Counted from the first letter of the stretch, positions 2,096 through 25,428 are shown. The stretch: 64,000 nucleotides of DNA from Nitrosopumilus sp. (GCA_965204345.1 OZ241981.1:1696001-1760000); one strand, 5' to 3'. Numbers and translations: made by a program. The notes: generated from the letters alone by a model not told the origin.

Positions 2096-2259
2096 ATGTT
2101 AATATATTAACATATATAACAGTTATAACTGTTAATAAATTAACATATTTGTAGGTTTGAAAAGACTGAAAATTTTAAATTTTTTTGAAATTTATTTTTT
2201 CAAAAATATGTTAATATATTAACATATATAACAGTTATAACTGTTAATAAATTAACATA
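2096..2259. promoter_or_regulatory. Two identical 52-bp direct repeats (2096-2147, 2208-2259), each made of three 16-bp palindromes; candidate operator
   Basis: ATGTTAATATATTAACATATATAACAGTTATAACTGTTAATAAATTAACATA occurs twice; the second copy ends 3 bp before the ATG at 2263. The repeat is seen directly; the regulatory role is inferred. Confidence 0.7.
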
Positions 2260-2262
2260 ATT

Positions 2263-3384
2263 ATGAGAACTGATTCAAATTTGAAAAGATCTGAATACCC
2301 TCAAGCATCAATGAGAAGATTGTCGTTAAGACCCCTCTTTCCAACAAAAAACGATATTGGACTTTTTGTTGGACGAGAAAAAGAAATGAATGTAATAGAA
2401 TCTTGTATGCGAAATCGGCTAAATTTGCTTTTGGTTGGAGAAAGAGGAACAGGTAAAACCTCGTTGCTAAATTATACTTATTACAAAACAATAAAAATTG
2501 ATAATGTTGTTGGAGTACTAGTAAACATTCTACCCAAATCTATTTCAGACACATCTAGTTTTCTTAATTTAGTCTTAGATTCCACTTTGGATGAAATAAG
2601 ACATAAGCACTTTGCAGAACAATTTTTTAGCGAATTTGATACTAGACGAACAAATGATGTCTTTATTGCATTTAATTCAATAATCACTATCTTAAAACAA
2701 CATAATGTTGAAGTTGTATTTTTAATTGATGGATTTGATCATCGTGTTGAACTTTGTTACAGAATAATGAGTTCATTACGTGAAGTTTTTTGGCAAACAG
2801 AATTTCCTGTAATTATGACAGGTGATTCAAATAAAATTAATGAATATAGAAGACCTCCATTAGATGCATTTTTTGATAAAAAACTAGAGCCGCAGCCTTT
2901 AAGCTCTGATGAAATAATGAAATTGTTTGAATTAAGACTCGGAAAAAAATATCTAGATAAAACCTCTGCAAATACACTGGCTGAAAGAACCGAATCTAGT
3001 ATAATCGATAAAATTTTGTTAGTGAAAGAATTTTTTGAAAAAAACCCAAAAACTAGAAAAATACTTTTATCTAAACTAGAACCAAAATCTGAAAAAAATA
3101 TGTCTATGGATACTTTAAATCAAAAAACCATTCTCAAAGTGTTTGAATCTTCTTTAGTGCATTTGTCTCCTGCAAAAAAAGAAATTTTACGGTATATTCG
3201 TATTAATGGACCCAGTTCAGCATCAGATAAGGAATTCCAGAAATATATGGGCGTATCTCGTTCCAGATTAACTCAAATGTTATTGTCATTAAGTAAAAAT
3301 GAAATACTGATGAAAAGCAAGGATGCTAAAAAAAGGAAAACTCTATTTGGAATATCTGATGAAATAAAAAGTAGATTTACATGA
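2263..3384 (+). CDS. AAA+/P-loop ATPase with C-terminal winged HTH
   Basis: FVGREKE, Walker A GERGTGKT, Walker B VFLIDGFD, C-terminal LSPAKKEIL...MGVSRSRLTQMLLSL. Confidence 0.8.
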   Translation: MRTDSNLKRSEYPQASMRRLSLRPLFPTKNDIGLFVGREKEMNVIESCMRNRLNLLLVGERGTGKTSLLNYTYYKTIKIDNVVGVLVNILPKSISDTSSFLNLVLDSTLDEIRHKHFAEQFFSEFDTRRTNDVFIAFNSIITILKQHNVEVVFLIDGFDHRVELCYRIMSSLREVFWQTEFPVIMTGDSNKINEYRRPPLDAFFDKKLEPQPLSSDEIMKLFELRLGKKYLDKTSANTLAERTESSIIDKILLVKEFFEKNPKTRKILLSKLEPKSEKNMSMDTLNQKTILKVFESSLVHLSPAKKEILRYIRINGPSSASDKEFQKYMGVSRSRLTQMLLSLSKNEILMKSKDAKKRKTLFGISDEIKSRFT

Positions 3385-4445
3385 CTAAAAATACCCTATT
3401 GCATGAATTATTGGAAAATGATGCCTTTAAACATACTACTATCCCAATCAATGAACTCCCATATCTTTATGAACCATTTGAAAAAATTTCTAACAAAAAG
3501 ATAGAAACAAAAATAATTAGTAGCATCCAAAAAAATCATGTAATAATCATAAAATCTGATGGTGGTACGGGTAAAACATGTGCTGTAAATTATTCTCTAT
3601 TGCAATTACAGGATGATATTTTTCCAATAGTGCTTAGTCCATTTATGGAAGAAGTTGATGAGGTCTGTAACTCAACAAAAGAATTTACTAGATTTGTTTT
3701 GAATCAAACATTACATGCAGTCAAAAATTTTTCAAATTTGTCAAAAGATACTGAAAAAAAGGTACGTGATGCACTCGCAATTGAAACATCTTTTATAGAA
3801 TCAAAAAAATATAGTATTGGAGGTTCTTTTAGAGCTGCCTTTTCAATTCTTCCATTTATTGCAAAAGTCGAAGCAGGAGTAAAAGCGGATTTAGAAAACT
3901 ATGCCTCTAAAGCAATAAAATCAAAAATATTCAACACTCAACGAATTGAAGCAATACGCGGGTTATGTGAAACAATTGAAGCTCATAATCTAAAACCTGT
4001 TTTCTATATTGATGATACTGACAAATTTTTGAAGAGAGAAGATCTAGATTTATCTAAATTAGTTCCTAAGTTTTTTGGGCAAATTTTGTTAGGACTTATT
4101 AAATTAGACAGACCTCTAATTTTAGCTGCTCATGCATATTATACAAAATCTGCTTCTTACAGAGATGCAGAAAGTAACTATGTTGATCAAGTAATAATCT
4201 TGCCTGAATTAAATAAGACCGGAATAATTTCTTTGATAAATACCAGAATTAAGGCAGTTGATAGTTCTAAAAACATAAAAAATGTTTTTGAAGATAATGC
4301 AATAAAGTCATTAATCAAATATTACAATTCGAAAAAAATTATTAGAAACCTAATGCTTATCTGTCAAGAAAGTATTGATCTTGCTGATTCTCAAGGAACA
4401 AAAGTCAGTAAAAGCATGGTTGATTCGTTTATAGTTGGAAAATAA
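3381..4445 (+). CDS. P-loop ATPase, translationally coupled to the upstream ATPase
   Basis: Variant Walker A SDGGTGKT, Walker B FYIDDTD; ATGA start/stop overlap. Confidence 0.75.
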   Translation: MTKNTLLHELLENDAFKHTTIPINELPYLYEPFEKISNKKIETKIISSIQKNHVIIIKSDGGTGKTCAVNYSLLQLQDDIFPIVLSPFMEEVDEVCNSTKEFTRFVLNQTLHAVKNFSNLSKDTEKKVRDALAIETSFIESKKYSIGGSFRAAFSILPFIAKVEAGVKADLENYASKAIKSKIFNTQRIEAIRGLCETIEAHNLKPVFYIDDTDKFLKREDLDLSKLVPKFFGQILLGLIKLDRPLILAAHAYYTKSASYRDAESNYVDQVIILPELNKTGIISLINTRIKAVDSSKNIKNVFEDNAIKSLIKYYNSKKIIRNLMLICQESIDLADSQGTKVSKSMVDSFIVGK

Positions 4446-4672
4446 AATTAAAACTATTATCAATAAAACATACACTGTTCAATCCTAGTGTCACTTGCCT
4501 GTCTTAAAGACACTTAAGAATACGTGACATAGAGTTTTCACTTAAACCGGAGATAAATGACTGGGTTGACAAGATAAACACTCCAGAACATGCCAAGGTA
4601 GGATAAAATTAGTTCGATTTTCCTCACTCTTTAATTCAAAAGTTTTTCACTAAGCCCGCTTTTGATAGTTGT

Positions 4673-5026
4673 ATGGGTGATATCAAGCAAGTTATTGTTG
4701 TTAGGACTGATCTTGAGATGGGCAAGGGCAAAATTGCCGCTCAGGTGGGACATGCATGTGTTCTTGGGGCAGAGCATGTTAGAAGATCCCATCCCAAATG
4801 GCATAGTGAGTGGTGGGGAGGACAAGAAAAGGTGGTAGTCAAGGTTCCTGGCATCAAGGACTTGCAAGAGATAAAAAAGCACGCAATTGACTTGAATCTT
4901 CCATGGTCTGAGGTATCTGATGCTGGTCATACCCAGCTGGCTCCTGGCACAGTAACCTGTATCTCTATTGGGCCTGCCCCAGAAGACCTGATTGACAAGA
5001 TTACCGGAGATCTAAAATTACTGTAA
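4673..5026 (+). CDS. pth2: Peptidyl-tRNA hydrolase Pth2
   Basis: KQVIVVRTDLEMGKGKIAAQVGHA, GQEKVVVKV, DAGHTQLAPGTVTCISIGP. Confidence 0.95.
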   Translation: MGDIKQVIVVRTDLEMGKGKIAAQVGHACVLGAEHVRRSHPKWHSEWWGGQEKVVVKVPGIKDLQEIKKHAIDLNLPWSEVSDAGHTQLAPGTVTCISIGPAPEDLIDKITGDLKLL

Positions 5027-5043
5027 TGTGCATTATTTTTTGT

Positions 5044-5362
5044 GGTCTGTTGCGTTCATGAGGATAGACACGAATCTGTTTGATCGCACAAGTTTTAATC
5101 AAGACCTACAAACGACACTGGTAAATTCCAGTGATCAGATCATCGAAACTTACCAGAATTGTCCGTTGCATTTACCGTGTTCATCTTAAAATCATCAAGA
5201 TTTGCTTTGATGTGGTTGTTTTCTCTAGTTCCTTGATCAATATCGGAGAAATAATCTCAATACACTAAATGAACATCAGTTTGAAAATCAGAAAACGCCC
5301 TAAGATTCAACAATGTCCCAAATTTATCTCTCGTGCCTATCCCTCATAAACGCAACAGAATC
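5044..5362 (+). mobile_element. MITE, ~320 bp, with ~30-bp terminal inverted repeats resembling IS6-family ends (copy 1)
   Basis: Left GGTCTGTTGCGTTCATGAGGATAGACACGA; right TCGTGCCTATCCCTCATAAACGCAACAGAATC; near-identical inverted copy at 15379-15699. Confidence 0.85.
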
Positions 5363-5369
5363 GCCATAC

Positions 5370-7556
5370 TTGAATTTAAAACTTACATTACCGATCATTG
5401 TTTTTGCACTAGTACTTTTATTCGTGTATCCCTTAGAGTCTATATCCCAAACTGATGAGAATGAACAGTTTACAGTGCCAGACAATCTTATCCCAGATGA
5501 CAGTACATTAGGTCCTGTTGCAAACGTGGATGTACCATCCAAGTTTGATGGCGGCTTTTATGACAAAATCCTGGGTCTCATATCTGAGGTACCTCAGGAT
5601 GGTGACTATGGGGTACATGACGGCACGCGATACTATGATGTCCTAATTATAGTGGCCAGAGGCGATGGGGACGATGGCATAGATGCAGATGAGACAGCAC
5701 GCGAGAACAAGTATGCAATTGCAGAGAAACTTGATCTTCTTGGCGCACGCAACATAGCATCTGCAGAGTCACTCTCATTTGTAACTGCATCTATCCCAGT
5801 TGCAGATGTTCCGGGGCTCTCACTTTATGACGAGATATATGCCATGGGAGATGGTGAAATTCCCGTGACTCTGGAGATTGATACGGTTAGGGGAACCGTA
5901 CATGCAACTCCAAACGAGATTAATACTGCAACTGATACCAATCTTGATGGCAGTGGAGTTGTTGTGGCAATCATTGACAGAGGCATCAACCACGATATTG
6001 CATTTAACGACAGAATCATTGACCGTGTAGAGTGCGATGATACGTGTGAGCCTGCAACTGCTGCCAGTGTGATCGGCGTTAATAGTAATAATGATCTTTC
6101 TACTGCTTTTGCATCCCATGGTACGCATATAGCCCAAGTCCTTGCCGCATCAGGACTCCCAGCTCATAACGGCATTGCGCCCGGTGTGGAACTTTTGGAT
6201 GCCTCAATTACTAGGCATACTGTTGATAACGATAAGAATCGTACTTTCGTTAATGCAAACAGAAATGACGTGGCACATGCCCTTGACTGGTCTCTCAAAA
6301 AAGGAGCCGACATGGCAGTCATGAGTTTTGGTTTTGGAATCTGCAATGGAGATTATGGAAAGACAACCAACCTCATCACAAATGAGGCAGTTGACAAGGG
6401 AATGGTTCTAGTATCATCTGCAGGAAACAGGGGCATAATTTATGGAGCGCCAAACCAGCCAGTTTATCAGTCTATAACTCATCCCGGATGCGGACACAAT
6501 GAAATTACCGTAGGCGGAATAAATGATCGTGGTGAAACAATATCAAAGGCAAGCTTTGCAAGCAGGGGTCCAGCACCCGGAACAGTCATGCTAAAGCCCG
6601 AGATAGTTGCACCTGCACAGCGTCTTCAGACACTGGACAATGTTGCAGAAGATGACAATTTTAGTCCTCGGTCCGGAACCAGCCTTGCTGCTCCCCAGGT
6701 AAGTGCAACTGCTGCCCTGTTGCTACAGGCAAAACCTGATCTGACTCCAGTTGAGATAAAGACCATACTTCTTCTTGGGGCTGACTGGCAGGGTCCAATC
6801 CCTTGCACGTCTGTACAATATGAAACAAACAATCCCAACGACAACTGTTCTTATGCCAGACAGCCATCTAACACTGTTGAGAGAAACAATTCTGAATCCC
6901 TTCAAATACTAAACAATGTGGGCTTTGGCATACTAAACACTGGAGAGTCACTTAGGTATGTTCACAGTGAATCATCATCATCATCTCATGTAATGTCAGA
7001 TCATCTCAAGTCAGATACGCATACAAAGCAGTATGAGTTTACAGTACAGGACACATCAAAACCAGTCAAAGTGATACTGTCATGGCTAGTTCATCCCCAT
7101 GGCAGTATAACCGGACAGTTGGGTCATACTGATACAGCAGTTCCTATTGCGAACCTAGATTTTACAATAACTACTCCAAATAATGCTACAATACGGGCAA
7201 CATCAGACCATCAGACAAACGAGTTTGCAGTGTTTGCCCCCACTCGCACCGGAACATACACCATAACACTTAGCGGCTCAGACATTGGTGACATAAACAA
7301 GTCGGTACAAAACTTTGCGCTGGCAAGTACCAACCCTCTTACACTTGTAGGTGACAGTATACTAGATAGAAAAATAGAGAGACACATCTCTACACAAACC
7401 AGAATTACAGATATCGCAGAAGATATTAAACAGTTAGAGCAAAAATTACAGGATAAAAAAGACAAGATAGAAGAACTAGACTCGTTACTTTCTGAGATTT
7501 ATCTACAAATTATAGAGTTGGCCCCTGTTGGTTACGAACTTCCATTCAAGGATTGA
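5370..7556 (+). CDS. Secreted S8 subtilisin-like serine protease with coiled-coil tail
   Basis: Triad motifs VAIIDRG, SHGTHIA, SGTSLAAPQV; oxyanion SAGN. TTG at 5370 chosen over 5313 because it aligns with the paralog's signal peptide and 5313 lies inside the MITE. Confidence 0.88.
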   Translation: MNLKLTLPIIVFALVLLFVYPLESISQTDENEQFTVPDNLIPDDSTLGPVANVDVPSKFDGGFYDKILGLISEVPQDGDYGVHDGTRYYDVLIIVARGDGDDGIDADETARENKYAIAEKLDLLGARNIASAESLSFVTASIPVADVPGLSLYDEIYAMGDGEIPVTLEIDTVRGTVHATPNEINTATDTNLDGSGVVVAIIDRGINHDIAFNDRIIDRVECDDTCEPATAASVIGVNSNNDLSTAFASHGTHIAQVLAASGLPAHNGIAPGVELLDASITRHTVDNDKNRTFVNANRNDVAHALDWSLKKGADMAVMSFGFGICNGDYGKTTNLITNEAVDKGMVLVSSAGNRGIIYGAPNQPVYQSITHPGCGHNEITVGGINDRGETISKASFASRGPAPGTVMLKPEIVAPAQRLQTLDNVAEDDNFSPRSGTSLAAPQVSATAALLLQAKPDLTPVEIKTILLLGADWQGPIPCTSVQYETNNPNDNCSYARQPSNTVERNNSESLQILNNVGFGILNTGESLRYVHSESSSSSHVMSDHLKSDTHTKQYEFTVQDTSKPVKVILSWLVHPHGSITGQLGHTDTAVPIANLDFTITTPNNATIRATSDHQTNEFAVFAPTRTGTYTITLSGSDIGDINKSVQNFALASTNPLTLVGDSILDRKIERHISTQTRITDIAEDIKQLEQKLQDKKDKIEELDSLLSEIYLQIIELAPVGYELPFKD

Positions 7557-8437
7557 ATTTTTTATTTAATGTGTGCATCAAGATAACAAATGTCTGATGC
7601 ATCCAAACGACTGCATCCTGTGATTAATAGTTTGCAAAAATCAAAAATATACCATAAATTAAACTCTTAGCAAATAAATTATTAGATTAGTTATTGATAT
7701 CTGCTGTCAACAGGTTACAGCTGTCTAATAGTCCAAAGTAAAACTATCAAGGACATTGCAAGCTCCATACCTCACTAGAGTCAGATTACATATGAGAATC
7801 TTTTTGCAAGGAACACTCCGCAGCTGGCTGAATCAAGAGGGATGCTTGTCACCCACATCGCAGATTCGCTTGAAGAGATTGCAATTGACTAAAATGACCT
7901 GCCCATAGTGTTTTAATCAGCACTTTGGAAAGTCATTTTTGCTTCCCATAGATGTCATTTTGGGCTGGACCCTGACTAATGAAAAAAGGCAAAGGGCATT
8001 TAGCAAGCTAGGGGGGGGACACAATTGTCGTAAAAATCAAGGAACAGAAATTGGATTTAAAATACACAAAGGATTGATCTTGTCAGGTTTTCTCAGACAG
8101 TTGCTGGAAAATTTTTCCAACAGATCTATTAGTGATAAAGAGAACGTTGGGTTGGTGTCTGAGAACAACAAACAGAGGTGTGTTTGTGGTCAGACTTACC
8201 AGATGAGCTTCAAAAAGATATAGAATTTGACGGATAGTTTGAAAAACCACAACATTCAAAAAAAGAGATCAAAGAGTGTTCCAATAAAATTGCAGCACAG
8301 CCTAATGTGCATAAGAGATAGGATTCACTTGAAAAATTGATTCCTTTTGAGAATGTCCCCTGTTATGACTGCCACTGGGATTTGTGTCACAGGTGTATTG
8401 CCAATCTGGTTTATGTGGCGGCGGGTCATCTCTCTAT

Positions 8438-8544
8438 CAGGTTATACAGGCATTACCAAGTCCATTTACTGGCACTCAAATATATCTAATCTTTTTTCTT
8501 CTATCCACAGGTTATACAGGCATTACAAAGTCCATTTAATGGCA
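8438..8544. repeat. 37-bp direct repeat, 2 copies, 70-bp period
   Basis: CAGGTTATACAGGCATTAC(C/A)AAGTCCATTTA(C/A)TGGCA at 8438-8474 and 8508-8544. Confidence 0.75.
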
Positions 8545-8569
8545 ATAGCAGACTTGTTTGTCCCAGCAA

Positions 8570-11500
8570 CTATGCAAATCCAAACAGGGATCTAAAAAAG
8601 TCTGTAATTACATCAAAGAAACCCTTTTGATCCTCGGAGATTCTCTGCGAATCTGCAGGCACACACTCTCCGCCTACCATCTGCGTTCCTGAGCTGCATG
8701 ATGACCCTTGATCATTACCAGTACCTGTGCCGGTTTGGGATGGTTCTGAATCGGTCACAGTCGTTGTCGACTTTATCTCTGTTTCTGCGGTTGGTTCTCC
8801 TGAGTCTGTCTTTTCACTCAAATCCGGTACCGGAGGTTCTGGCTTCATCCCTGTTTCTGCGGATGGTTCTGGGTCCATCTTTTTCATTCCTTCTTCTTCC
8901 TTCTCCTCCTCCCCCTCATTCAAACCTGGCACTTGTGGTTCTGGGTCCATTAGATTCTGGACTGCTCCAACCTGGGTATTGTTTGCAGGTATGCTTTGTT
9001 CTGGGGAATACTTGCCACTGCTTCCTCCACCACCGCCACCACCGCCACCACCGCCACCACCACTGCGGCTACTAGAAGGTGTGGATGGTGTAGGTTCTAC
9101 AGAAACCATAGAGAATGAGCCAAATGAGCTAAAGTGCGTGGTCCAGATGATCATATCAGGGCCGGCACGAACAAAACATGATTCCAATGTGGTGTCAGCA
9201 CCAATATTGTCATTGGCAGTATCCTGATTGACAGGAACAAACGGACATACAACCAGTGATCGTGATATCACATTGCCATCAGCATCGTTTCCTGAGAAGA
9301 AGGCACCCTCATGGCCTGCCTGGTCAGGCAAGAGTAACCTGACTGCCTGATCAAATGTTAATCTAGTGTTACCATCACCGACCGAGAATGCCAGTCCTAT
9401 CTCATCATTTGAGGTTGGAGGATCAACCGCAGTACCGGTAGTAGTAACAAGGGTTGGAACGGCAATGGTGCCACTCCAATCATCAGATGAGCCAGTTACA
9501 ACGACACTAGCTGGATAAGTGACAGTGACAGTTTGGGAATCAGAGACCTCAGAGGTGACCTCAGTTGTAGAATCAGAAATTCTCACACTCTTTGTTCCGC
9601 TTGCAGCATCATCAGCAAACGTTGGGGTGGCATTAAAGTCAAGCAGCTGGCCATCAGTGGCAATAATTGTGTCAGGTAATGTATCAGATACCACATTAAG
9701 GGTGATCAGATTTGAGGATGGCTCATATGTCACTACGCCACCATCGCCTCCAGAGGGAATATCGGCCTCAATTTCATCTCCTGTGGTGCTGATGGTGATG
9801 GTAACTGAATTAGATGCCTCATTGGGGTTGCCTGCAAGGTCTGCTGCCATACCTGCACCTATTGATACGGTTACTGTTCCGTCAGATGAGCCGCGAGCCA
9901 CATTAAAGGTGTAGACACTGCCTTCTCCGCCAATGTTGGATGCTGTCGGGGTACCACCGTTTACAGTACCAGTTACTGTAATGTCATCTAGATCAAAGTT
10001 CTCAATCTCCTCATCAAATGTTGTTGTAAACGTTACGGGGTCATCGCCAGTAATAGTACCATTGGCAGGCGTGATAGATACGGATGGGTTTACCATGTCC
10101 ACTGTAATAGTATGTACAGCACCCGTGTTGCCCCCTGCCACCACACCATCAGGTATGCTTACTGTAAGCTGACCCTCTCCAGTGATCCCGTGTATGACTG
10201 TAAAGTCGTATTGTGCACCACTGGTTCCATTAAAGTCAGTTATCAGGATATCTGGTGCCTGTGTCCTGCCAATTTCCACAACGACGGAATTTTCCCCTCC
10301 AAGATCAAGACTAATCTCAGAGTTAGATACCTGGGTTCCGTCAATTGCCACAACGATGTCAGACCGCTCAAATCCTGTGACATTGCCGCTAAATGTCGCA
10401 GTAAATGGGATGGCCTCAGAGTTGGTAGGATCAGATGTATCAGTACTCAGGGATACGGATGGGACAGTGGTGTCTATTCTAACGGTAACTGAATTAGATG
10501 CGGTGTTGGGGTTGCCTACAACATCTGCTGCCACTCCTGTTGCAACTGATACAGTTACGGTTCCATCAGATGATATACTTGCAACATCAAAGATGTATGT
10601 GCGGGCATCAACTGTCTCAAAGCCGGTTGCTTCAAGGATGCCGCCGTTGGCATCGCCTGCCACTGTAATGTCATCTACGATAAAGTCCCTAACGTCCTCG
10701 TCAAATTCTACTGTAAATGGTACCGTATCAAGTCCGGTGCTGCTGCCTGCAGACGAACTTACAGAGACAGTTGGGGCAAGGGTGTCTATGGTAACTGTAA
10801 CTGAATTTGACGCGGTGTTGGGGTTGTCTGCTGCATCTGTTAGCGCGTTTGCATCTATGGTTACGGTCACTGTTCCGTCTGTGGAGCCGCGTGCCACATC
10901 AAAGGTGTGGACACTGCCTGCTCCGCCAAGGTTGGATGCTATGGGACTGCCGTTATTTGCTGTACCCGTTACTGTAATGGCACCTAGACCAAAGTCGACA
11001 TCCTTGTTGAATGTTACCGTAAATGGTACCGTAGTTAGGTTGGTGCTCTCACCTGCAGTTGTAGTTACAGAGACGGTTAGGGGAATGGTGTCGGGATTGT
11101 CTGGAGGGTCTGTTGGATCTACATCTCTGACAGTAACTATCTGTGTAAGAGTTGCGGTATTTCCTGAATCATCAGTGGCAGTCCATACCACACTGTGTGT
11201 TCCAACGGCAAATGATGCAGTATCACTGGCAGTTACAGCAACAACGTCTGAATCCACTATATCAGTTGCAGCTGGCGCGCTTATTGATACGGGTGTAAGT
11301 TCTGCTGTGGCATCCACAGTTATTGGTGCAGGCTGTACTATTGTGGGAGGAGTGGTATCCTCCAGAGTTACAGTGCTAGTTGTTGTAGAGATATTTCCAG
11401 ATTCGTCAGTGGCAGTCCATACGATTATGGTATCACCCAGAGGAAACGATGCAGTTGCGTTGCTAGTTATGGTAAAAGGAAAGATATCTGTTACTGTGGG

Positions 11501-14500
11501 GTCTGCCAGCTGTATTGCAGTTAATGATGAGGTAGCCTCTGCTGTAACATTTTCAGGCTTTTGTATTACCGGTGGTGTTGTGTCTTGTACGGTTATCGTC
11601 TGTGCTGCAGTATCTGCGTTTCCTGCAGCATCTGTGGCAGTCCATGTAACTGTTGTGGAGCCAAGTGGGAAATTGTCTGGTGGTACGTCGTGAGTTATGT
11701 CAGGGCTTGGATCTGCATTGTCTGTAGCTGATGCCGTACCAGTATCAACAGGTGTACGAATGCCGGTAGCCTCTACAGTGAGATCAGCAGGAGCTGTAAT
11801 TACAGGTCTTGTGGTATCTGGAGGGTCAGGATTGTCGTCGCCGTCGTCACTAGTTATAAAAACATGAAACAACCCACTACCAAATATGCCAGATGTCGCA
11901 ATTATGCGAACAGGATAAGTGCCAACGGTGGCGTTATGCGGAGAGATGGTAATGTCTGCCGTACCACTACCAGTACGGGATATGCTGACAAAATCTGGGG
12001 CTTGTTCGAAATGCCACGAAATTGGTCTATTGTTGGGATGCGTTGCAGACACGCTTACAGTACGGGTCTCTCCGTTACGCAAAGTGATATCATCAATGGA
12101 TTCTATTACCGGAAATATACTTGGGATGAAGTTTGTGGTGGATGTGGGGCGTGACTGTGAATCACTTCCACCAAAGCCAAAATCAGAACCAACATAGGTT
12201 ACTGTAATTGGTGTATCATATGGAATGCCTGATGTCCTCAAAAACCTTGTGTCAGGGCTCCTCAAAATATTAGTGACCGAGGTGACTGTTCCATCAGACA
12301 GACTAAAATCACTTGATGTAAAATTAGTATAAAATTCTACAGGGAACTGTAGAATAATGGTGAAGGTAGTTGTCAATTCGGATGTAAATGTTAATGGTAG
12401 TGGTGAGATGTTAAAATTATCAATCTCTACGAATTCATTGTCTCTGTTTGAGTCTGCCACAAATCGCAGTAATGTCTGTGATTGATCACGTAGGTTAAGT
12501 GTCAGGGCTTCAGAGTGCCAGTTGTCGGTATTATTCCCATTGATACGAGTATATCGTTCCAGTGTTCTCCAGCTGAAATCTTCCAGATACTGCACATACA
12601 GACCTTCATCTGAGTTAATTCTCCTATCAACAAATCTATCAAAGGACACTACAAGTGGGTTTCCTGTGTCTATTGGCTGGTTAAGTCTAATAACACACTG
12701 GAAATCACAGTCTCTAGATGTTGCCACCGTATTGCCGCTAGCAGAACCTGGAATGGTTTTGTGGGCATTTTTTATCTCCCACACGCCATTGCCAGATTGG
12801 CTCCAATTATCAAGCGTGTTAAAACTGTCAGTCATTATGTTTGATGACGGGGGTGGATCGTTTGGGATTGCAAAGATCATGTGGTGAAGTATCATAATGT
12901 CATGTGAAGAATCATTGTCTGTACCTTCCCATGCAGTATAGAAATCTCCAAAACTACGGTATGGTCTATTCTTAAATACATCAATAATTTCATCATCGCC
13001 TAATTGCAGGTTATCTAAGTTAGTACCGTTACTGCTTTGTTCTAAATTGTCAAATATTTCATCAACGTTATGATCTTTGATATCCCATAGCGCTCCGGCT
13101 ACCTGTCCTTGAACTAATTGTCCAACAAGATGAACGTTATCTACTGGGAAAAAAGCTAAAAATCTATCATCATCAGGGAAGGACTCTAACCTGTCTTGCT
13201 CCAAATCAATACTACTAAAAGTGTCACGTTGGAAATTTGACGAATTGGTAACTAAATGAGGAACAAAATTAGCCCAACCTTCTGTCCATGCACATCTAGG
13301 ATTAGTTGGGAGATGAAGATAATGACCTCTCTCACCGACATCATCAAAATCGCCATCATTGTTTATATCAGTGTAACAAGGCTGACGCAGGAGTGGAAAT
13401 ACACCTTGTATATCCATAATATGGTGGCCAAATTCATGTAATATGATAAGTTTGCTTAAAGCCTGATCACTGGCAGAAGATCTCTCACCGTCAAGCCACA
13501 TAATGTTGGCTGATCGTAAATATGCAGCACCGTTACTGGCACTGTCTGGAAAAACACTAGCACCACTATCAGGCTCCCACTTTACAGTAAGCCTCTCAGG
13601 AGAAATACCGTGATGACTAAATAAATCACGACCATCAGAGATCGCATTGATTATACCGGCAGCTCTTGCATTACTGCCATTCAATACAAAATCAAACATT
13701 CTTGTATCCTGACTAAAGTTCAAAACTCTGGTAGATGATTCTGTATAAACACGTTGAGATAAACCTTCCACAACTAAATCACTTGCGCCCTTGGAACTAA
13801 CTCTGATAACTAGATCAACATTTGATGCATCAGAAGGATCATCATTTTGGATAGAATCTATGTGATATCCTCCCATGTTGGATGTAAATGTGCAGGCCCT
13901 GCTATTGTCAGTTGTAAACAATACGGTCTCTGTACCGTCAGATTCAGGATAATCATAGGCACAGACTTCTATCCCATTGATGGGTTCTGTGTTGTTGGAA
14001 AAATAAATTGGAGCAGATACAGAGCCTGTAATGGAAAAGGTGTTGGAAGAAGAGTCTTCTGCTGTTGCTGCTGCACCATCAGACGTCTCCTGAGTTGTAT
14101 CTACGGGGAATGCTGGGGCAGCAGCGGTATCTGTGGAGGAGCCGGTTGCCGCTGCTGTTACTGCACCATCAGATGTGTCATGAGGGCCAGTGTAATCTGC
14201 CTCGTATCTTTCCATTGCATCATCTACTTCCGCCTGCGTGAAATTAGAGTGACTCAAAATACTTTTTACATCATCCAATGGAAGAGATTTATCAACAAGC
14301 CATCCAATTAAATCATCATTAACTTTGCCAATATCATTGACAGCTATCTCGCCCAAAAGTTGCAGATGGTTGGCATATATTTCAGCTACTCTTTCCTCCG
14401 TCAAAATCTCATTAACTATCTCATCTTTGGGTCCTGGTTTATTGCCAAGTCTGCTATCTTTTTGAGGTGCAAAAGATTCAGGACTAGATGCACTAGCTAA

Positions 14501-15337
14501 AATGTCGTGATCCAAAAACGTGTATCCCTCATCCATATACTCATTTTCGGGCATAGAATGCTCATCAGATATTGCAAGGTAGACACCGCCACTGGATTCT
14601 AAAGGATCAAAGCGCAATGCATCAATTTCAATAAATCCCTCCTCTAGAATTTCTATAGTAACCATCACGGTATAAGCCCTGTCCGGCACGGGATCATCTA
14701 CTACATATCCGACATTATTATCAAATGACTCAAAGCTGGTTGGATCATCAGAGCCCGCATTTGTTGTGGCATCATCATGAAACAAAACTTTGTCATCGGG
14801 ATTGGTAAATACTTTTAGTGTGAATGGTTCCATGTATGGTTCAAAATTTATATTGTCAGTATAGACACCGGTAAAATTTACCAAGGCAGTCTGACCCACC
14901 TTGGGCAATTCTGAGAGTTCTAAAGAATAACTGTGTATAAGAATTCCCGACGATGATAACATTGAAGATTCTTTGTAATCAGCAATAATCTGCTTTTCTT
15001 TGTCAGTAAATACATGCGTGTCTGTCTGGCTTGTGATCTTTTTATTTAAGGACTCGTGAGCTTTTTGGGATGTTTCTGGTGTATATGCCGTCATGGTATA
15101 GCTGCTGCTGCCCCTGTCTACTAATTTCATCGCAGAATCACCAGTTAGGCAAACTGGCTTGCCTGCAAGAGTCACCATCAGAATCTTGCCGTCATTGCAC
15201 TGAATCATGTCCATTGGTATGCCTGCATGATGCTGGTCCAGTGGCGAGTCCGGGATTGCAGCATGTGTTGGCATCATCACTGCCACCATCATCACGGTAA
15301 CCAAAACCAAAAGTTTCGACACTGCGATTCCGGCCAT
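8570..15337 (-). CDS. Giant secreted/surface protein: HExxH zinc-metalloprotease-like domain, jelly-roll domain, HYR and Ig-like repeats, poly-Gly linker, acidic tail
   Basis: Signal peptide; ILHEFGHH plus AWTEGWANF; three HYR-like units (DTTxPxI...FPLGxTTVTWTATD..GN); DAAxN/DLAGN Ig repeats; C-terminal GFFDVITDFFRSLFG. Confidence 0.8.
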   Translation of the reverse strand: MAGIAVSKLLVLVTVMMVAVMMPTHAAIPDSPLDQHHAGIPMDMIQCNDGKILMVTLAGKPVCLTGDSAMKLVDRGSSSYTMTAYTPETSQKAHESLNKKITSQTDTHVFTDKEKQIIADYKESSMLSSSGILIHSYSLELSELPKVGQTALVNFTGVYTDNINFEPYMEPFTLKVFTNPDDKVLFHDDATTNAGSDDPTSFESFDNNVGYVVDDPVPDRAYTVMVTIEILEEGFIEIDALRFDPLESSGGVYLAISDEHSMPENEYMDEGYTFLDHDILASASSPESFAPQKDSRLGNKPGPKDEIVNEILTEERVAEIYANHLQLLGEIAVNDIGKVNDDLIGWLVDKSLPLDDVKSILSHSNFTQAEVDDAMERYEADYTGPHDTSDGAVTAAATGSSTDTAAAPAFPVDTTQETSDGAAATAEDSSSNTFSITGSVSAPIYFSNNTEPINGIEVCAYDYPESDGTETVLFTTDNSRACTFTSNMGGYHIDSIQNDDPSDASNVDLVIRVSSKGASDLVVEGLSQRVYTESSTRVLNFSQDTRMFDFVLNGSNARAAGIINAISDGRDLFSHHGISPERLTVKWEPDSGASVFPDSASNGAAYLRSANIMWLDGERSSASDQALSKLIILHEFGHHIMDIQGVFPLLRQPCYTDINNDGDFDDVGERGHYLHLPTNPRCAWTEGWANFVPHLVTNSSNFQRDTFSSIDLEQDRLESFPDDDRFLAFFPVDNVHLVGQLVQGQVAGALWDIKDHNVDEIFDNLEQSSNGTNLDNLQLGDDEIIDVFKNRPYRSFGDFYTAWEGTDNDSSHDIMILHHMIFAIPNDPPPSSNIMTDSFNTLDNWSQSGNGVWEIKNAHKTIPGSASGNTVATSRDCDFQCVIRLNQPIDTGNPLVVSFDRFVDRRINSDEGLYVQYLEDFSWRTLERYTRINGNNTDNWHSEALTLNLRDQSQTLLRFVADSNRDNEFVEIDNFNISPLPLTFTSELTTTFTIILQFPVEFYTNFTSSDFSLSDGTVTSVTNILRSPDTRFLRTSGIPYDTPITVTYVGSDFGFGGSDSQSRPTSTTNFIPSIFPVIESIDDITLRNGETRTVSVSATHPNNRPISWHFEQAPDFVSISRTGSGTADITISPHNATVGTYPVRIIATSGIFGSGLFHVFITSDDGDDNPDPPDTTRPVITAPADLTVEATGIRTPVDTGTASATDNADPSPDITHDVPPDNFPLGSTTVTWTATDAAGNADTAAQTITVQDTTPPVIQKPENVTAEATSSLTAIQLADPTVTDIFPFTITSNATASFPLGDTIIVWTATDESGNISTTTSTVTLEDTTPPTIVQPAPITVDATAELTPVSISAPAATDIVDSDVVAVTASDTASFAVGTHSVVWTATDDSGNTATLTQIVTVRDVDPTDPPDNPDTIPLTVSVTTTAGESTNLTTVPFTVTFNKDVDFGLGAITVTGTANNGSPIASNLGGAGSVHTFDVARGSTDGTVTVTIDANALTDAADNPNTASNSVTVTIDTLAPTVSVSSSAGSSTGLDTVPFTVEFDEDVRDFIVDDITVAGDANGGILEATGFETVDARTYIFDVASISSDGTVTVSVATGVAADVVGNPNTASNSVTVRIDTTVPSVSLSTDTSDPTNSEAIPFTATFSGNVTGFERSDIVVAIDGTQVSNSEISLDLGGENSVVVEIGRTQAPDILITDFNGTSGAQYDFTVIHGITGEGQLTVSIPDGVVAGGNTGAVHTITVDMVNPSVSITPANGTITGDDPVTFTTTFDEEIENFDLDDITVTGTVNGGTPTASNIGGEGSVYTFNVARGSSDGTVTVSIGAGMAADLAGNPNEASNSVTITISTTGDEIEADIPSGGDGGVVTYEPSSNLITLNVVSDTLPDTIIATDGQLLDFNATPTFADDAASGTKSVRISDSTTEVTSEVSDSQTVTVTYPASVVVTGSSDDWSGTIAVPTLVTTTGTAVDPPTSNDEIGLAFSVGDGNTRLTFDQAVRLLLPDQAGHEGAFFSGNDADGNVISRSLVVCPFVPVNQDTANDNIGADTTLESCFVRAGPDMIIWTTHFSSFGSFSMVSVEPTPSTPSSSRSGGGGGGGGGGGGGSSGKYSPEQSIPANNTQVGAVQNLMDPEPQVPGLNEGEEEKEEEGMKKMDPEPSAETGMKPEPPVPDLSEKTDSGEPTAETEIKSTTTVTDSEPSQTGTGTGNDQGSSCSSGTQMVGGECVPADSQRISEDQKGFFDVITDFFRSLFGFA

Positions 15338-15378
15338 AAATAGTGGTGGGTATGCTTTATTATTAATGATAACAACGC

Positions 15379-15699
15379 GGTTCTGTTGCGTTCATGAGGG
15401 ATAGGCACGAGAGATAAATTTAGGATATTGTTGAATCTTGAGGCGTTTTCTGATTTTCAAACTGATGTTCATTTAGTGTAGTGAGATTATTTCTCCGATA
15501 TTGATCAAGGAACTAGAGGAAACAACCACAACAAAGCAAATCTTGATGATTTTAAGATGAACACGGTAAATGCAACGGACAATTCTGGTAAGTTTCGATG
15601 ATCTGATCACTGGAATTTACCAGTGCCGTTTGTAGGTCTTGATTAAAACTTGTGCGATCAAACAGATTCGTGTATATCCCTCATGAACGCAACAAAATC
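15379..15699 (-). mobile_element. MITE copy 2, inverted relative to copy 1
   Basis: GGTTCTGTTGCGTTCATGAGGGATAGGCACGA...TCGTGTATATCCCTCATGAACGCAACAAAATC; reverse complement of 5044-5362 with few mismatches. Confidence 0.85.
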
Positions 15700-15743
15700 G
15701 TTTTTTGGAATAAGATATAACAAGGTTCCTTATTTTTTCCTGT

Positions 15744-17345
15744 ATGAAGACTAAAGGCGTCATTGTAACCATCTTTTTTGGATTTATTCTGCTCTCTTCT
15801 ACTGTGCTTATCACTCTGCCTGGCATTGTTCCTGAAGATGAATCTGCCGAAGTTACAATTACTGGAACTCCCGCTGATAACTTTCCTGATGCGCAACGTG
15901 GACAATTTTGTGGCTCTAGTGATGCAAAATCCACAAAGTATGTTCAAGAATTTTCAATTCCCACAATGTGCACAAACCCATTAGCTATAGTGACTGATTA
16001 TGATGGAAATGTCTGGTTTACTGAAACTAATACTGGCAACTTGGCAAAATTTGATCCTACTACTGAATCTTTTACCGAATACCAGAATCCCTCGTGGCCT
16101 GACGGTGGACGTTCCATGATGTGGGGTATTGACTATGCCCCTGATGGCAATGTCTGGTTTACTGATGAATCCTATGATTCAGTATGGAAGTTCTCCACAA
16201 TTGATGAGACTTATGACAGATTGGCATATCCTTCTGAAGGAGACTCTTTGCCTCAGAAATTAAAAATTGATGGCTCTCAAATTATTATAAATGATTTTAC
16301 TGGAAACAAGCTCACCTTTTTAGATCCCAGTCAGTCCGGCGAGGATATCAACTATCTTAGCATTCCCTCCCCAGTAGATGATTCTGTAACCGGTGACTTT
16401 GCAATAGATGCAGATGATAATGTCTGGTTTACTAATTGGCTCTTTCAACAGGGCGGTGTCCTGGTAAAATTTGATCAGATTGGCTATCGTGATTCTGTCG
16501 TAAGTTCTAATGAACAATTCCTTCCATTGCTTGATTTCATTGAAATCCATGAGCTGCCTGTGGAATTAAACACCCCTAATGGTGCCATAGTTGATGATGA
16601 CGGGTTTGTCTGGTTGGCCGATACCACATCGTCTTCCTTCTTTAGTTTTGATCCCGTGGCTGAACAGTTTACCCACTATGTTACCTCTGATCCTGTATTG
16701 AGTACATATGGAAACCAAACAGGAGTTGTAAAATCCCCAATCTCTAGGCCCTATTGGATTGAGTCTGATGGACAGGGACGCATTATTTTCAACGAACAGA
16801 CTGCAAACAACATCTCCGTAATGGACCCAAAATCCCAATCACTTGTTGAATATCACGTTCCCTCAAAAAATCCATACTGGGGTGACTGTGATCCTGGGAC
16901 CGGCATTATGCTAGCTGACTGTGGCGTTGCCCAAATCTTTGATTTTGCAGTTGATGGCGAAAAAATTTGGTTTACAGAGTGGGTTGAGAATAATATTGGT
17001 GTTGTTGATACTTCTGTGCCATTGCCAATGGAAATTCAATTGGAATCTGACGAACTGACTTTGGCATCCGGGGATTCTGCACACTTTAACTTTATTGTAT
17101 CCCCATTATCTAATGATAATGATGATGATCTGGATGTAACATTGATTTTATCCCCCGCACACAAGTTCTTACAGGTAGCCCTTGATCATGATAGCGTTGA
17201 ATCCTTCCGGCTTGACTCCAATACCCCTGTTCATATCTCAATAACTGCATCTGAGAATGCCGAGCCTGGCACCTACAAGATTCTTCTTGGCGCACAATCC
17301 CCGGACATTGCAATCAGCAAGTATGTAACAGTGACAATAGAGTGA
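15744..17345 (+). CDS. Vgb (virginiamycin B lyase)-like beta-propeller, membrane-anchored
   Basis: Repeated P..I..D.DGNVWFTE blades; N-terminal hydrophobic segment. Confidence 0.8.
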   Translation: MKTKGVIVTIFFGFILLSSTVLITLPGIVPEDESAEVTITGTPADNFPDAQRGQFCGSSDAKSTKYVQEFSIPTMCTNPLAIVTDYDGNVWFTETNTGNLAKFDPTTESFTEYQNPSWPDGGRSMMWGIDYAPDGNVWFTDESYDSVWKFSTIDETYDRLAYPSEGDSLPQKLKIDGSQIIINDFTGNKLTFLDPSQSGEDINYLSIPSPVDDSVTGDFAIDADDNVWFTNWLFQQGGVLVKFDQIGYRDSVVSSNEQFLPLLDFIEIHELPVELNTPNGAIVDDDGFVWLADTTSSSFFSFDPVAEQFTHYVTSDPVLSTYGNQTGVVKSPISRPYWIESDGQGRIIFNEQTANNISVMDPKSQSLVEYHVPSKNPYWGDCDPGTGIMLADCGVAQIFDFAVDGEKIWFTEWVENNIGVVDTSVPLPMEIQLESDELTLASGDSAHFNFIVSPLSNDNDDDLDVTLILSPAHKFLQVALDHDSVESFRLDSNTPVHISITASENAEPGTYKILLGAQSPDIAISKYVTVTIE

Positions 17346-18541
17346 TACCTCCTTTAGATCTTGAAATTGGGATTTCCGTATACAGTACTGCCTTTACTGG
17401 AATTGGGGGAAAGATAAGAGCTGATCCTGAAGATTTTCAAGTTAGTGAGCTAATTTCTACAAAGGCAAAAAATTCCATAGGTGATCAGGATGGGTATGCA
17501 GTTTACAAATTAAAAAAGAAAAATATTGACACCAGTCATGCCCTCTCTGACATTCTCCGAAGAAAAGGCACACGCCTTAAATCCCTTGGATTAAAAGACG
17601 CATCTGCTGTAACTGAGCAGTTTGTCTGTTCTGGTAACAAGGGAAGGGCAGTTGAAAATTTTTCAACTGAGAAATACACGCTTGAGAAAATCGGCTTTGT
17701 AAAAAAACCCCTCTCAAAAAAAGACATGATTGGAAATCATTTCAAACTAAGAATCTCTGAATCCCAAAACGGCCTCTCTGACTTTAAAGAACATGATAAA
17801 ATTCTAAATTTTTATGGCTATCAAAGATTTGGCTCCAAACGACCTGTCACACACCTGATTGGCAAGGCCATCTTGCAAAGGGACTTTCAAAAAGCAGTTG
17901 ACCTGATTTTATCTTTTACCTCCGTATATGATTCAAAAGAAAATACAGAGATTCGTGAGAAACTTGCCGATGAGGCAAATTATGAGCAGCTCCTTGATAA
18001 AATTCCTGTCCAAATGGACATTGAGAGAATCATTCTCAAAAAAATGATTGAGCATGGAGAGCCGGTACGTGCAATTCGAAACATCCCTGTATCCTTGAGA
18101 CGATTTTATGTTCAGGCATACCAGTCCTTTATTTTTAATCAGTCCCTCAGTTCTGCTTTCTCTGAGGGCGAAAATCTCTTTGAGGCACAGTCAGGCGATG
18201 TCTGTTTTGATCACGCCGGAATTATTGGCAAATATGTAAAAGGATTGGATCAAAACTTGGCATTGCCTTTTGTTGGTTACTCGTACTATAAAAAAACTAG
18301 ATTTGACTTTCAGATCTCAAAGGTATTGGATCTTGAGGAAATTTCCCCTAAAGACTTTTTCATTAAAGAAATGCAAGAAGTCAGCAATGAGGGAGGCTTT
18401 AGACAAGCAGCCATTGATTGTACAAACTATTCTACTTGTGATGATGACATGATAGAGTTTTCATTATCTAGGGGCTCCTTTGCAACTGTCTTGCTAAGAG
18501 AAGTAATGAAACCAAACAATCCCATGGCTGCCGGCTTTTGA
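17342..18541 (+). CDS. truD: tRNA pseudouridine(13) synthase TruD
   Basis: PEDFQVSE, GLKDASAVTEQ, GNHFKL, NFYGYQRFG, FSLSRGSFAT. Confidence 0.93.
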   Translation: MIPPLDLEIGISVYSTAFTGIGGKIRADPEDFQVSELISTKAKNSIGDQDGYAVYKLKKKNIDTSHALSDILRRKGTRLKSLGLKDASAVTEQFVCSGNKGRAVENFSTEKYTLEKIGFVKKPLSKKDMIGNHFKLRISESQNGLSDFKEHDKILNFYGYQRFGSKRPVTHLIGKAILQRDFQKAVDLILSFTSVYDSKENTEIREKLADEANYEQLLDKIPVQMDIERIILKKMIEHGEPVRAIRNIPVSLRRFYVQAYQSFIFNQSLSSAFSEGENLFEAQSGDVCFDHAGIIGKYVKGLDQNLALPFVGYSYYKKTRFDFQISKVLDLEEISPKDFFIKEMQEVSNEGGFRQAAIDCTNYSTCDDDMIEFSLSRGSFATVLLREVMKPNNPMAAGF

Positions 18542-25394: not shown

Positions 25395-25428
25395 TCAATT
25401 CAAAATTTTTTTCTTTTTTTGATGAATA

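Follow-up and report, generated by a model that had tools for sequence, protein, structure and literature searches.

A 64,000-nt stretch of the genome of Nitrosopumilus sp. (the window) contains, at positions 5043-15699, a 10,657-bp unit that is very probably a non-autonomous composite transposon, in which two inverted IS6-like MITEs surround two convergent protease/adhesin genes. The whole unit, including both MITEs, is an insertion into the ~55-bp spacer between pth2 and a vgb-like gene. The insertion duplicated the target ATTTTTTG, and it is recent enough for presence and absence of the unit to be polymorphic among near-identical strains.

MITE A (~320 bp, plus strand, 5043/5044-5362) and MITE B (~321 bp, minus strand, 15379-15699) are 96% identical over 317 nt, stand in inverted orientation and enclose 10,016 bp; an inverted repeat search placed the arms at 5062-5406 and 15335-15679 with 91% identity. 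The MITEs are 319-321 bp long, have ~33-nt terminal inverted repeats and contain no ORF of at least 60 aa wholly inside them. Each copy has terminal inverted repeats of its own, as the original prediction had described: 33 nt at 88% identity in MITE B (15378-15410 and 15668-15700), and 18 nt at 94% in MITE A (5046-5063 and 5342-5359), where a 1-nt indel halted the ungapped extension. The inner terminus of MITE B is a perfect GGTTCTGTTGC (15379-15389) and that of MITE A reads ...GCAACAGAATC, whereas the outer termini are degenerate, with (T)GGTCTGTTGC in place of GGTTCTGTTGC in MITE A and GATTTTGTTGC on the reverse strand in MITE B. Each outer terminus has two changes within its first 6 nt while the inner termini are nearly intact; had the outer ends been used recently, the reverse would be expected, unless the changes came later. 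A solo MITE at the pth2-vgb site is ruled out because left-end subterminal MITE sequence, from beyond the 33-nt repeat, is present at both outer junctions. In agreement with the prediction that the unit lacks a transposase, Pfam detected none in the four ORFs scanned between the MITEs (the two cargo genes and the ORFs at 7939-8223 and 8347-8595); the remaining ORFs of at least 80 aa are all contained in the two cargo genes, either antisense to them or in an alternative frame. The GC content of the cassette (39-49%, against 38.7% for the genome) is not diagnostic.

The insertion site is bounded on the left by pth2 (peptidyl-tRNA hydrolase; 4673-5026, plus strand; PF01981, E=2.2e-41) and on the right by the vgb-like gene, which encodes a Vgb-lyase-family beta-propeller (15744-17345, plus strand; PF24684, 68 bits), followed by the conserved backbone gene truD (17342-18541, plus strand; PF01142, 298 bits). 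The heptamer TTTTTTG, originally put forward as a possible target duplication, is present at 5036-5042 and 15701-15707; we refine it to an 8-bp duplication with one mismatch, ATTTTTTG at 5035-5042 against GTTTTTTG at 15700-15707 (7/8 identical), of which the empty allele has a single copy. A match of at least 7/8 arose between random 8-mers at equal spacing in 0.08% of trials; with one base of slack at each end the figure was 0.5%. The duplication is T-rich and of low complexity, and its eighth base depends on the placement of the degenerate left tip. MITE A is flanked by ATTTTTTG outside and GCCATACT inside, and MITE B by AACAACGC inside and GTTTTTTG outside, the inner flanks being unrelated to the outer ones. 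Comparison of these four flanks gave no target duplication belonging to MITE A or MITE B individually, a pattern that would have spoken against movement as a unit, and no reverse-complement pattern of recombination or of IS6-type intramolecular inversion; cointegrate or inversion signatures are absent at this locus. Immediately to the right of the insert the conserved upstream motif of the vgb-like gene, GGAATAAGATATAACAAGG, is intact, and removal of the insert together with one duplication copy regenerates the motif TTTTTTGGAATAAGATATAAC of relatives.

The same site is empty in relatives. In 20 congeners, selected among the 53 relatives that had a pth2 match because their identity was high and their contigs were long, the genes pth2, vgb-like, truD, orf19145, orf20203 and orf21149 occur in this order at every locus. 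The gap between pth2 and vgb measures 44-62 nt in 19 of the 20; in the most distant congener (G002) the vgb-like match starts at residue 42, ~460 nt past pth2. No homologue of either cargo gene was found near pth2 in any of the 20 (14.7-20 kb around pth2, mostly downstream), so that proteases at this locus without MITEs, the other observation that would have weighed against the prediction, were not encountered. A full-length MITE was not found among 40 relatives searched, where an internal 38-nt palindromic MITE motif alone gave matches, in G002 and G007. The empty site carries a single CATTA-TTTTTTG-GAATAAG, both in relatives and in a metagenome contig (X9 record 25) considered below.

The first cargo gene encodes a subtilisin-like serine protease (S8; 5371-7556, plus strand; PF00082, 123.2 bits against a cut-off of 21.8) with an apparently signal-peptide-like N-terminus. 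Its likely start is the TTG at 5371, 9 nt from MITE A, and its frame can be extended upstream without a stop to an ATG at 5313, within MITE A. The second gene (8570-15337, minus strand) encodes a 2,255-aa secreted or surface protein, annotated by Pfam (PF02494, PF19078) and by fold and motif comparison, which consists from N to C of a WING-49 domain, an HEFGH region at about residues 450-900, HYR and Big_12 repeats and a Gly-/acid-rich C-terminus. The HEFGH motif and a downstream Glu are invariant in nine of nine aligned sequences of this giant protein. Its structure model is of low confidence (mean pLDDT 58), and the ten best Foldseek matches are all M4 proteases, though weak ones (E 3e-3 to 4e-2, TM 0.3-0.5). 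Pfam gave no match in the first 1,000 residues, a sequence search of the PDB gave nothing at E<=1, and a homologue search returned only seven unnamed proteins. The subtilisin named in the original prediction stands on its Pfam match, while the giant metalloprotease, to judge from HEFGH and the weak fold matches, is better called a putative, weakly supported thermolysin-like metalloprotease/adhesin.

The two convergent genes are separated by a spacer (7557-8569) built from the 3′ flanks of both: positions 7557-7748 resemble the 3′ flank of an S8 paralogue, and ~7910-8388 that of paralogues of the giant gene. Neither a MITE remnant nor a transposase was found in this spacer, and its ORFs (7939-8223 and 8347-8595) have no Pfam family. 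At the other side of each gene, paralogue homology to S8 starts exactly at 5363, the inner end of MITE A, and that to the giant gene within 7 nt of 15378, the inner end of MITE B. Both cargo genes seem to have been cut off from their original upstream DNA, each now lying next to the same MITE end, and that end may therefore act as a promoter for both. A second copy or donor of the cassette was not found in the genome, where protein identity to the nearest paralogues is 72-83%.

The genome also contains three 13.5-kb units with a giant gene and an S8 gene, 91-95% identical to one another, of which at least one (window 29511-43054) lies between genes that are adjacent in relatives and has no IS6-type termini. 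Pairs of this kind thus also spread in some other way, between conserved genes and without these MITEs, and the cassette could have entered the pth2-vgb spacer in that way, or by illegitimate or microhomology recombination, in either case without the use of MITE termini. The MITEs would then have come along as passengers or inserted later, and TTTTTTG would be repeated by chance in a T-rich spacer, as the low complexity and imperfection of the duplication and the degenerate outer termini would allow. We consider this unlikely: the edges of the insert are the outer MITE tips to the base, with the 8-bp duplication typical of the family; the conserved flanks of the 13.5-kb units are missing from the cassette, where paralogue homology ends instead at the inner ends of the MITEs; and it is very improbable that two MITEs inserted afterwards at precisely the two junctions, without duplications of their own. 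Transposition of a MITE-bounded composite accounts for these features, and it draws further support from the MITE family itself.

A genome-wide check showed the MITE to be multi-copy, with seven near-full copies (92-100% identity, one of them 5′-truncated) and partial copies besides. A perfect 8-bp duplication, CTTTGTAC, flanks copy C, and a 6/8 duplication flanks copy F; the flanks of copies D and E gave none. A AAATTTATC box lies within the MITE end. The search for an autonomous element with the same termini led to a 6.2-kb element at G000:C1:1027172-1033422, which encodes a transposase, carries a Mod+Res restriction-modification cargo and is flanked by a perfect 8-bp duplication, GACTGTTA. 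The ends of this element align to MITE positions 7-79 and 279-324 with 86-92% identity. Two further elements, of 17.2 and 18.7 kb, carry the same termini, and their homology to each other stops within 4-12 nt of them.

The transposase of the 6.2-kb element, encoded on the minus strand at G000:C1:1027507-1028652, is a 381-aa DDE protein (PF13610, 34.2 bits against a cut-off of 27). Among seven NCBIfam families IS6 is its best match (E=2.5e-22), at a score under the NF033587 (IS6) cut-off (79.6 against 125 bits). All 12 aligned sequences share D205, D264, E305 and R312, the last of these providing the K/R found 7 residues past the catalytic E. The protein is an atypical long form with added CxC...CxH and CxxC...CxxC zinc-binding domains, the first of which we take to be SWIM-like. 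GG-tipped inverted repeats with perfect 8-bp duplications occur at 37 of 77 related transposase loci; the terminus consensus is GGTTCTGTTGC, and most related elements begin GGTTCTGT. The inverted repeats have the GG tips and an internal cTGTt motif and lack the 'caaa' motif. The elements of related transposases span 1.9-6.2 kb with extra ORFs and do not match the simple IS6 layout (~700-890 bp, with one HTH-DDE transposase of ~230-250 aa). The IS6-type affinity that had been predicted from the terminus holds for the termini, the 8-bp duplication and the DDE domain.

We propose that the composite arose at another site before this insertion, through the arrival of one MITE in front of each gene, at distances of 9 and 41 nt from the start codons. 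A transposase acting in trans, most likely the 381-aa protein of the 6.2-kb element with its SWIM-like zinc finger and DDE domain, may then have taken the two outermost termini as one pair; because each MITE has a terminus at both ends, these form a correctly oriented inverted pair, and the unit would therefore have moved like the single-terminus cargo elements of the family. The chemistry could have been cut-and-paste; it could also have been copy-in, with two copies of the whole composite then being resolved. The composite is known from one insertion site, so the case for its moving as a unit depends on that one event. MITE-driven mobilisation into the pth2-vgb-truD locus, as originally suggested, agrees with the empty site and the duplication; it is drawn from that one insertion, and the layout is not of the IS26 type. 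In the parts of the literature drawn on here, the repeats of functional IS6 compound transposons are without exception direct, and an inverted pair would stall at the cointegrate (Varani et al. 2021, PMC7986276), so the canonical IS26 route fails to explain the inverted layout.

A further explanation is that an IS6-style copy-in event fused a plasmid, virus or excised circle with the chromosome, and that later recombination or inversion turned the MITEs against each other. The IS6-like transposase and termini, the formation of cointegrates known for the IS6 family (in the portion of PMC7986276 cited) and the lack of a donor copy in the chromosome are in its favor. We nevertheless regard it as highly improbable, as a cointegrate from one MITE yields direct and not inverted repeats, no donor backbone genes lie between the MITEs, the reverse-complement duplication pattern of intramolecular IS6 inversion is absent, and vgb and truD retain their ancestral orientation.

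Both alleles of the locus were recovered among metagenome contigs. X9 record 25 (1,129 nt, depth 21.4) joins window positions 4513-5035 directly to 15701-16308, with 0-1 other letters per aligned piece, so that the empty pth2-vgb site anticipated by the original prediction is seen in a near-identical natural strain as well as in all 20 congeners; here it is one assembled contig (from Logan contigs, not raw reads). The filled outer junctions are bridged by contigs of X3 (4513-5091 and 15644-18500) and X8 (4513-5097 and 15676-16093), and the inner junction on the side of the giant gene (15013-15471) is likewise bridged in two independent runs. Unique pieces of the cassette have a depth of 202-221 in X3, against 190-202 for the flanks, and of 4.4-5.5 in X9, against 21-23; the low-depth pieces in X9 may come from a filled allele present in a minority, or from a copy at another site. 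That the cassette is ancestral and was precisely lost from the X9 strain and relatives, or is an assembly error at a MITE repeated seven times, in whose copies short-read contigs break, is barely credible even with contigs as the evidence in place of raw reads, since precise loss would be needed in each of twenty independent species, these junctions are each bridged in two independent runs, the same MITE end at both outer junctions requires two inverted MITEs here, and the depth of the cassette in X3 agrees with that of its flanks. The flanks of the empty allele differ from the window by ~0.3% whereas the two MITEs differ by 4%, so the MITEs are older than the insertion, which is compatible with the composite model but adds an unseen donor stage. 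Among contigs from an RNA library (X11), a stretch of 567 nt matches the 3′ end of S8 exactly (7058-7624) and has depth 12.7, compared with 13.8 for pth2 and 18.4 for vgb-truD, a weak hint that S8 is expressed; these contigs show no transcript starts and may include DNA carry-over. A 25-nt word across the inner junction and a 21-nt terminus core each had no matches in JGI metagenome contigs, a collection that may omit records near the genome of the window.

Tn5 and Tn10 have inverted terminal IS modules whose outer ends are the ends of the transposon, with a target duplication around the whole element. The Nitrosopumilus unit likewise has inverted end modules and a whole-unit duplication, but its modules are 320-bp MITEs without a transposase, and are IS6-like and not IS4-like. 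Closer in construction, as far as described in PMC6382973 and PMC10969869, are the Acinetobacter class 1 integrons that lie between identical MITEs of 439 bp and a bacterial 76-kb mer region flanked by two copies of MITE-297: in these, too, two non-autonomous copies surround transposase-free cargo, and mobilisation in trans was inferred from structure and duplications. Compared with those accounts, the present unit is archaeal and chromosomal, uses an IS6-like MITE, has an empty allele in a natural population, and carries a secreted protease/adhesin pair in place of resistance genes. With the IS26/IS257 pseudo-compound transposons, which according to the sections of PMC7986276 used here have direct repeats when functional and move via cointegrates or translocatable units, it shares GG tips, the cTGTt motif, an 8-bp duplication, an IS240/IS6-type DDE domain and cargo between two copies. 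It differs in that the copies are inverted and non-autonomous, the duplication surrounds the whole unit, and the partner transposase is 381 aa long with extra zinc-binding domains and falls below the NCBIfam IS6 cut-off. The IS6-family MITEs in ISfinder, MITEBth2 and MITEHarch3 (227 and 336 bp; PMC6807381, PMC7986276), are by description, not by sequence, similar short non-autonomous elements derived from IS6 ends (~320 bp here); in the excerpts cited they are reported as solitary, whereas the Nitrosopumilus MITEs bracket cargo. MITE-bounded composites are thus already known in bacteria, and in the literature searched we found no earlier report of one in an archaeon.

The cargo has a counterpart in the sponge symbiont Ca. 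Nitrosospongia ianthellae, for which an exported HYR-repeat metalloprotease of 2,027 aa, assigned to M72, and expanded S08A subtilases have been described (Moeller et al. 2019, PMC6790972). By description this is the same type of cargo, a giant HEXXH/HYR protein with subtilases, though in the passages of that study on which we draw the genes are not presented as transposon cargo, and the fold search with the Nitrosopumilus giant protein pointed weakly to M4 with no M72-assigned match. More generally, sponge-associated ammonia-oxidising archaea are reported to be enriched in transposases and restriction-modification systems as well as in secreted subtilases and a giant HYR metalloprotease (PMC6790972, PMC7848895), and the portions of these papers considered here do not explain how such genes spread. 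The pth2-vgb locus presents one route of spread of secreted genes in sponge-associated archaea at base-pair resolution, with a filled allele, a natural empty allele, a target duplication and a candidate transposase. Its inverted layout is a testable exception to the direct-repeat rule of functional IS6 compounds, and the MITE with its transposase is a candidate genetic tool for a group that lacks one.

Tentatively, and with the odds rather against so broad a reading, the composite may be a product of a system that actively shuffles cargo in a sponge-associated Nitrosopumilus. If so, the transposase would accept any correctly oriented pair of termini, whether of single elements, MITEs or MITE pairs in either orientation, and, with inverted end modules being functional, the cointegrate and direct-repeat rule of IS26 would not apply to this enzyme. 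The genes moved would be ones of host interaction, namely the protease pair, single adhesin genes of 16-17.5 kb and a type III restriction-modification system, and MITE ends would replace native promoters. Strain-level differences in secreted proteases would then be arising today inside a host population.

Two ~320-bp elements, MITE A (5043/5044-5362) and MITE B (15379-15699), lie in inverted orientation in the window (C1:1696001-1760000) of the 2.12-Mb genome (38.7% GC) of this Nitrosopumilus sp., as the original prediction described; they share 96% identity along 317 nt, and each has inverted termini of ~33 nt (consensus GGTTCTGTTGCGTTCATGAGGGATAGACACGA). The 10,016 bp between them hold two convergent genes, and none of the four ORFs of at least 80 aa scanned there with Pfam (the two genes and two spacer ORFs) is a transposase, again as described. 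The first gene, which probably starts at a TTG (5371) 9 nt away from the left MITE, is solidly identified as the anticipated subtilase (S8; PF00082, 123 bits). Its frame is open into the MITE up to an ATG at 5313 (5313-5370), so the S8 protein may gain 19 residues from the MITE, or the MITE may simply precede the conserved TTG start. The second gene (8570-15337, minus strand, ATG 41 nt from the right MITE) encodes a 2,255-aa protein, for which the earlier label of giant metalloprotease is plausible, not established. Pfam detects only HYR and Big_12 repeats, and NCBIfam a WING-49 domain; a HEFGH motif near residue 640 and a downstream Glu are invariant in an alignment with seven database homologues and one paralogue, and the ten best Foldseek matches to a low-confidence model (pLDDT 58) are M4 proteases (E 3e-3 to 4e-2), including thermolysin, gentlyase, aureolysin and Bacillus cereus neutral protease. 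The cargo is comparable to the 2,027-aa exported HYR metalloprotease and expanded S08A subtilases reported in another sponge archaeon (Moeller et al. 2019, PMC6790972). Runs containing the window DNA are mostly labeled as sponge metagenomes.

The cassette, together with both MITEs, is an insertion at the pth2-vgb site. From 53 same-genus genomes with a pth2 match, 20 were picked for high identity and long contigs, and 14.7-20 kb around pth2 was compared. In all 20, pth2, the vgb-like gene and truD, the target locus proposed, stand with three more genes in the order of the window, and the site is empty. The pth2-vgb gap measures 44-62 nt in 19 congeners; in the most distant, G002, the vgb-like match starts at residue 42, ~460 nt past pth2. 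No S8 or giant-gene homologue occurs in the stretch compared in these 20 genomes, and proteases standing here without MITEs, which would speak against a composite, were not seen. Congener spacers close with a T-rich run and then GGAATAAGATATAACAAGG, which in the window lies directly after the insert, and in silico removal of 5043-15707 restores ...CATTATTTTTTGGAATAAG....

The unit carries a target duplication of the length typical of its family, 8 bp. The outer flanks ATTTTTTG (5035-5042) and GTTTTTTG (15700-15707) match at 7/8 positions, as do TTTTTTGT and TTTTTTGG with 5044 taken as the left tip; the chance of 7/8 for random 8-mer pairs at this spacing is 0.08%, or 0.5% when each end may shift by one base. 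The flanking TTTTTTG repeat noticed originally is real, but is best read as this imperfect 8-bp duplication. No match was seen for the inner flanks GCCATACT and AACAACGC, and therefore there is no duplication belonging to either MITE alone, which would have pointed to independent arrivals. Of the reverse-complement flank patterns expected after inversion, none fits.

Contigs from four public runs, placed on window positions 3000-18500, show that the empty allele occurs in nature and that the cassette is polymorphic among strains. The empty-allele joint was seen in a single assembled record of run X9 (record 25; 1,129 nt at a depth of 21.4, with 0-1 differing letters in each piece), which joins 4513-5035 to 15701-16308 and omits 10,665 bp. 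Filled outer junctions are crossed by assembled contigs of X3 (4513-5091, 15644-18500) and X8 (4513-5097, 15676-16093), and the inner junction on the giant-gene side is bridged at 15013-15471 (X3) and 15013-15463 (X8). On both sides, the outer-junction contigs run beyond the 33 terminal nt into sequence found at one MITE end only, the same end each time, and therefore two inverted MITEs, not one, are present at the site. In X3, depth over unique cassette pieces (202-221) is near that of the flanks (190-202), whereas in X9 it is about one quarter (4.4-5.5 versus 21-23).

The MITE is a multi-copy family, with seven near-full copies in the genome at 92-100% identity (one 5′-truncated) and partial copies besides. 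Among the copies elsewhere, C has a perfect 8-bp duplication, F one of 6/8, and D and E none. Copies C and F (contig C1:1436996-1437308 and 2016456-2016768) lie 46-47 nt upstream of ORFs of at least 818 aa that run to the end of the sequence read there, and have ~35 nt of flank in common; either MITE and neighbor were duplicated together, or two paralogues each received a MITE at the same upstream position. Inside the MITE (positions 83-119; window 5122-5160 and 15581-15619) is a 38-nt imperfect palindrome, CTGGTAAATTCCAGTGATCAGATCATCGAAACTTACCAG. It also has ~22 solitary copies in this genome, often ~110 nt after a 42-nt motif and near S8 or giant-gene paralogues, and is present in the congeners G002 and G007.

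An autonomous element with the same termini, whose existence had been anticipated, spans 6.2 kb at C1:1027172-1033422 (L060:673-6923) with GACTGTTA as its perfect 8-bp duplication. Its genes are those for a 381-aa transposase and a type III-like restriction-modification pair (DNA methylase, PF01555; type III restriction subunit, PF04851), along with a 98-aa Cys-rich ORF. A 1.1-kb transposase remnant at C1:1061227-1062345 retains the C-terminal half only. Two larger elements with the MITE's termini, of 17.2 kb (C1:467425-484656; L058:926-18157) and 18.7 kb (C1:582159-600866; L059:660-19367), each carry a 100-aa ORF and a single Ig-repeat (Big_12) gene, of 5,325 or 5,819 aa. Homology between the two stops 4-12 nt from the termini, their flanks differ, and one has a 7/8 duplication; therefore, the family habitually carries cargo between these termini. 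Their ends correspond to MITE positions 7-118 and 83-324, so either the MITE resembles an internally deleted form, with the deletion across a 36-nt repeat, or the larger elements resemble a MITE with a captured gene.

The 381-aa transposase passes the Pfam IS240/IS6 DDE model (34.2 bits, cut-off 27), and among NCBIfam models IS6 matches best (E=2.5e-22), though below cut-off (79.6 versus 125). In an alignment with 11 relatives, D205, D264, E305 and R312 are invariant, as are CxC...CxH and CxxC...CxxC motifs ahead of the DDE domain, the former of which we take to be SWIM-like. This type of transposase (~370 aa, both motifs before DDE) is widespread in Nitrososphaerota, Bathyarchaeia and Methanoperedens. 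Across 77 related loci from public genomes of these groups (L061-L137), 37 have a GG-tipped inverted repeat pair, mostly GGTTCTGT..., inside a perfect 8-bp direct repeat; in the remaining 40, 26 have no pair (contig ends in some) and 14 have a pair without a perfect repeat. The 37 elements measure 1,855-5,923 bp against a transposase gene of 1.1 kb, so extra genes seem usual. GG tips, cTGTt and 8-bp repeats are shared with the IS6 family (Varani et al. 2021, PMC7986276), and the IS6 affinity proposed earlier holds for these features and for the DDE match; element size and domain make-up differ from those of classical IS6-family IS (700-890 bp).

That MITEs mobilized the cargo was the core of the original prediction, and the insertion, the duplication length and the polymorphism support it; we infer that the outer ends were used, which transposase acted and that there was an earlier donor stage. 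Because each MITE has the terminus at both its ends, the two outermost ones make a normal inverted pair however the MITEs are oriented to each other. A transposase acting in trans could then handle the 10.66-kb unit like the 6.2-kb element. At the donor stage, a MITE would have inserted shortly before each of the two start codons. Paralogue homology to the cargo genes sets in exactly where the MITEs end on the inside, at 5363 on one side and no more than 7 nt from 15378 on the other; thus both genes have lost the upstream DNA native to them, and the same end of the MITE now faces each. This end has a AAATTTATC box 33-41 nt from its tip, and the MITE may plausibly act as a promoter.

Several observations weigh against the composite reading. 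Only one composite insertion was found, and among the many paralogues in the genome none is closer to either cargo gene than 72-83% protein identity. The inner MITE termini are better preserved than the outer, and MITEs A and B diverge by 4% versus ~0.3% for the empty-allele flanks. Functional IS6 compound transposons are described as always having direct repeats, and an inverted pair would stall the one-IS cointegrate route (Varani et al. 2021, PMC7986276); that route cannot explain the inverted layout seen here, and a whole-unit event via the outer ends is needed. S8 and giant gene pairs also spread without these MITEs. There are three 13.5-kb units of this kind, 91-95% identical, one at 29511-43054 (2,686-aa giant gene and 1,233-aa S8 fusion gene) and others at C1:1759422-1774142 and C1:1840442-1854610. 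The first separates genes ~100 nt apart in relatives, and its ends are other than IS6-like termini, the right end being the 42-nt motif (~25 dispersed genome copies). Both gene types form large families specific to this genome: S8 genes occupy at least 10 loci and full giant genes at least 5, with protein identities of 64-83%; S8 relatives occur in only 7 of 60 congeners, at no more than 56% identity.

A low-GC (28-32%) block at 869-4672, with an AAA/STAND-like ATPase (2263-3384) and a DEAD-like gene (3381-4445), lies between the upstream gene and pth2, which are 67 nt apart in relatives; it is a second, separate insertion adjoining the cassette, and may be a defence island. The region at 22184-26465 measures 4.3 kb here versus ~1.8 kb in the closest relative, and contains a ~1.1-kb repeat 96-97% identical to C1:250-255 kb and to contig C6, along with shorter dispersed repeats.

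MITE pairs around cargo are known in bacteria, for example in Acinetobacter integrons and MITE-297 (PMC6382973, PMC10969869), whereas the present case is archaeal. ISfinder has two IS6-family MITEs (PMC6807381, PMC7986276). A search that most subscription journals lay outside turned up no report of an archaeal MITE-bounded composite and none of a thaumarchaeal MITE. We take the cassette to be a MITE-composite of the sort known in bacteria; what is unusual is its inverted IS6-like layout and the direct population evidence.
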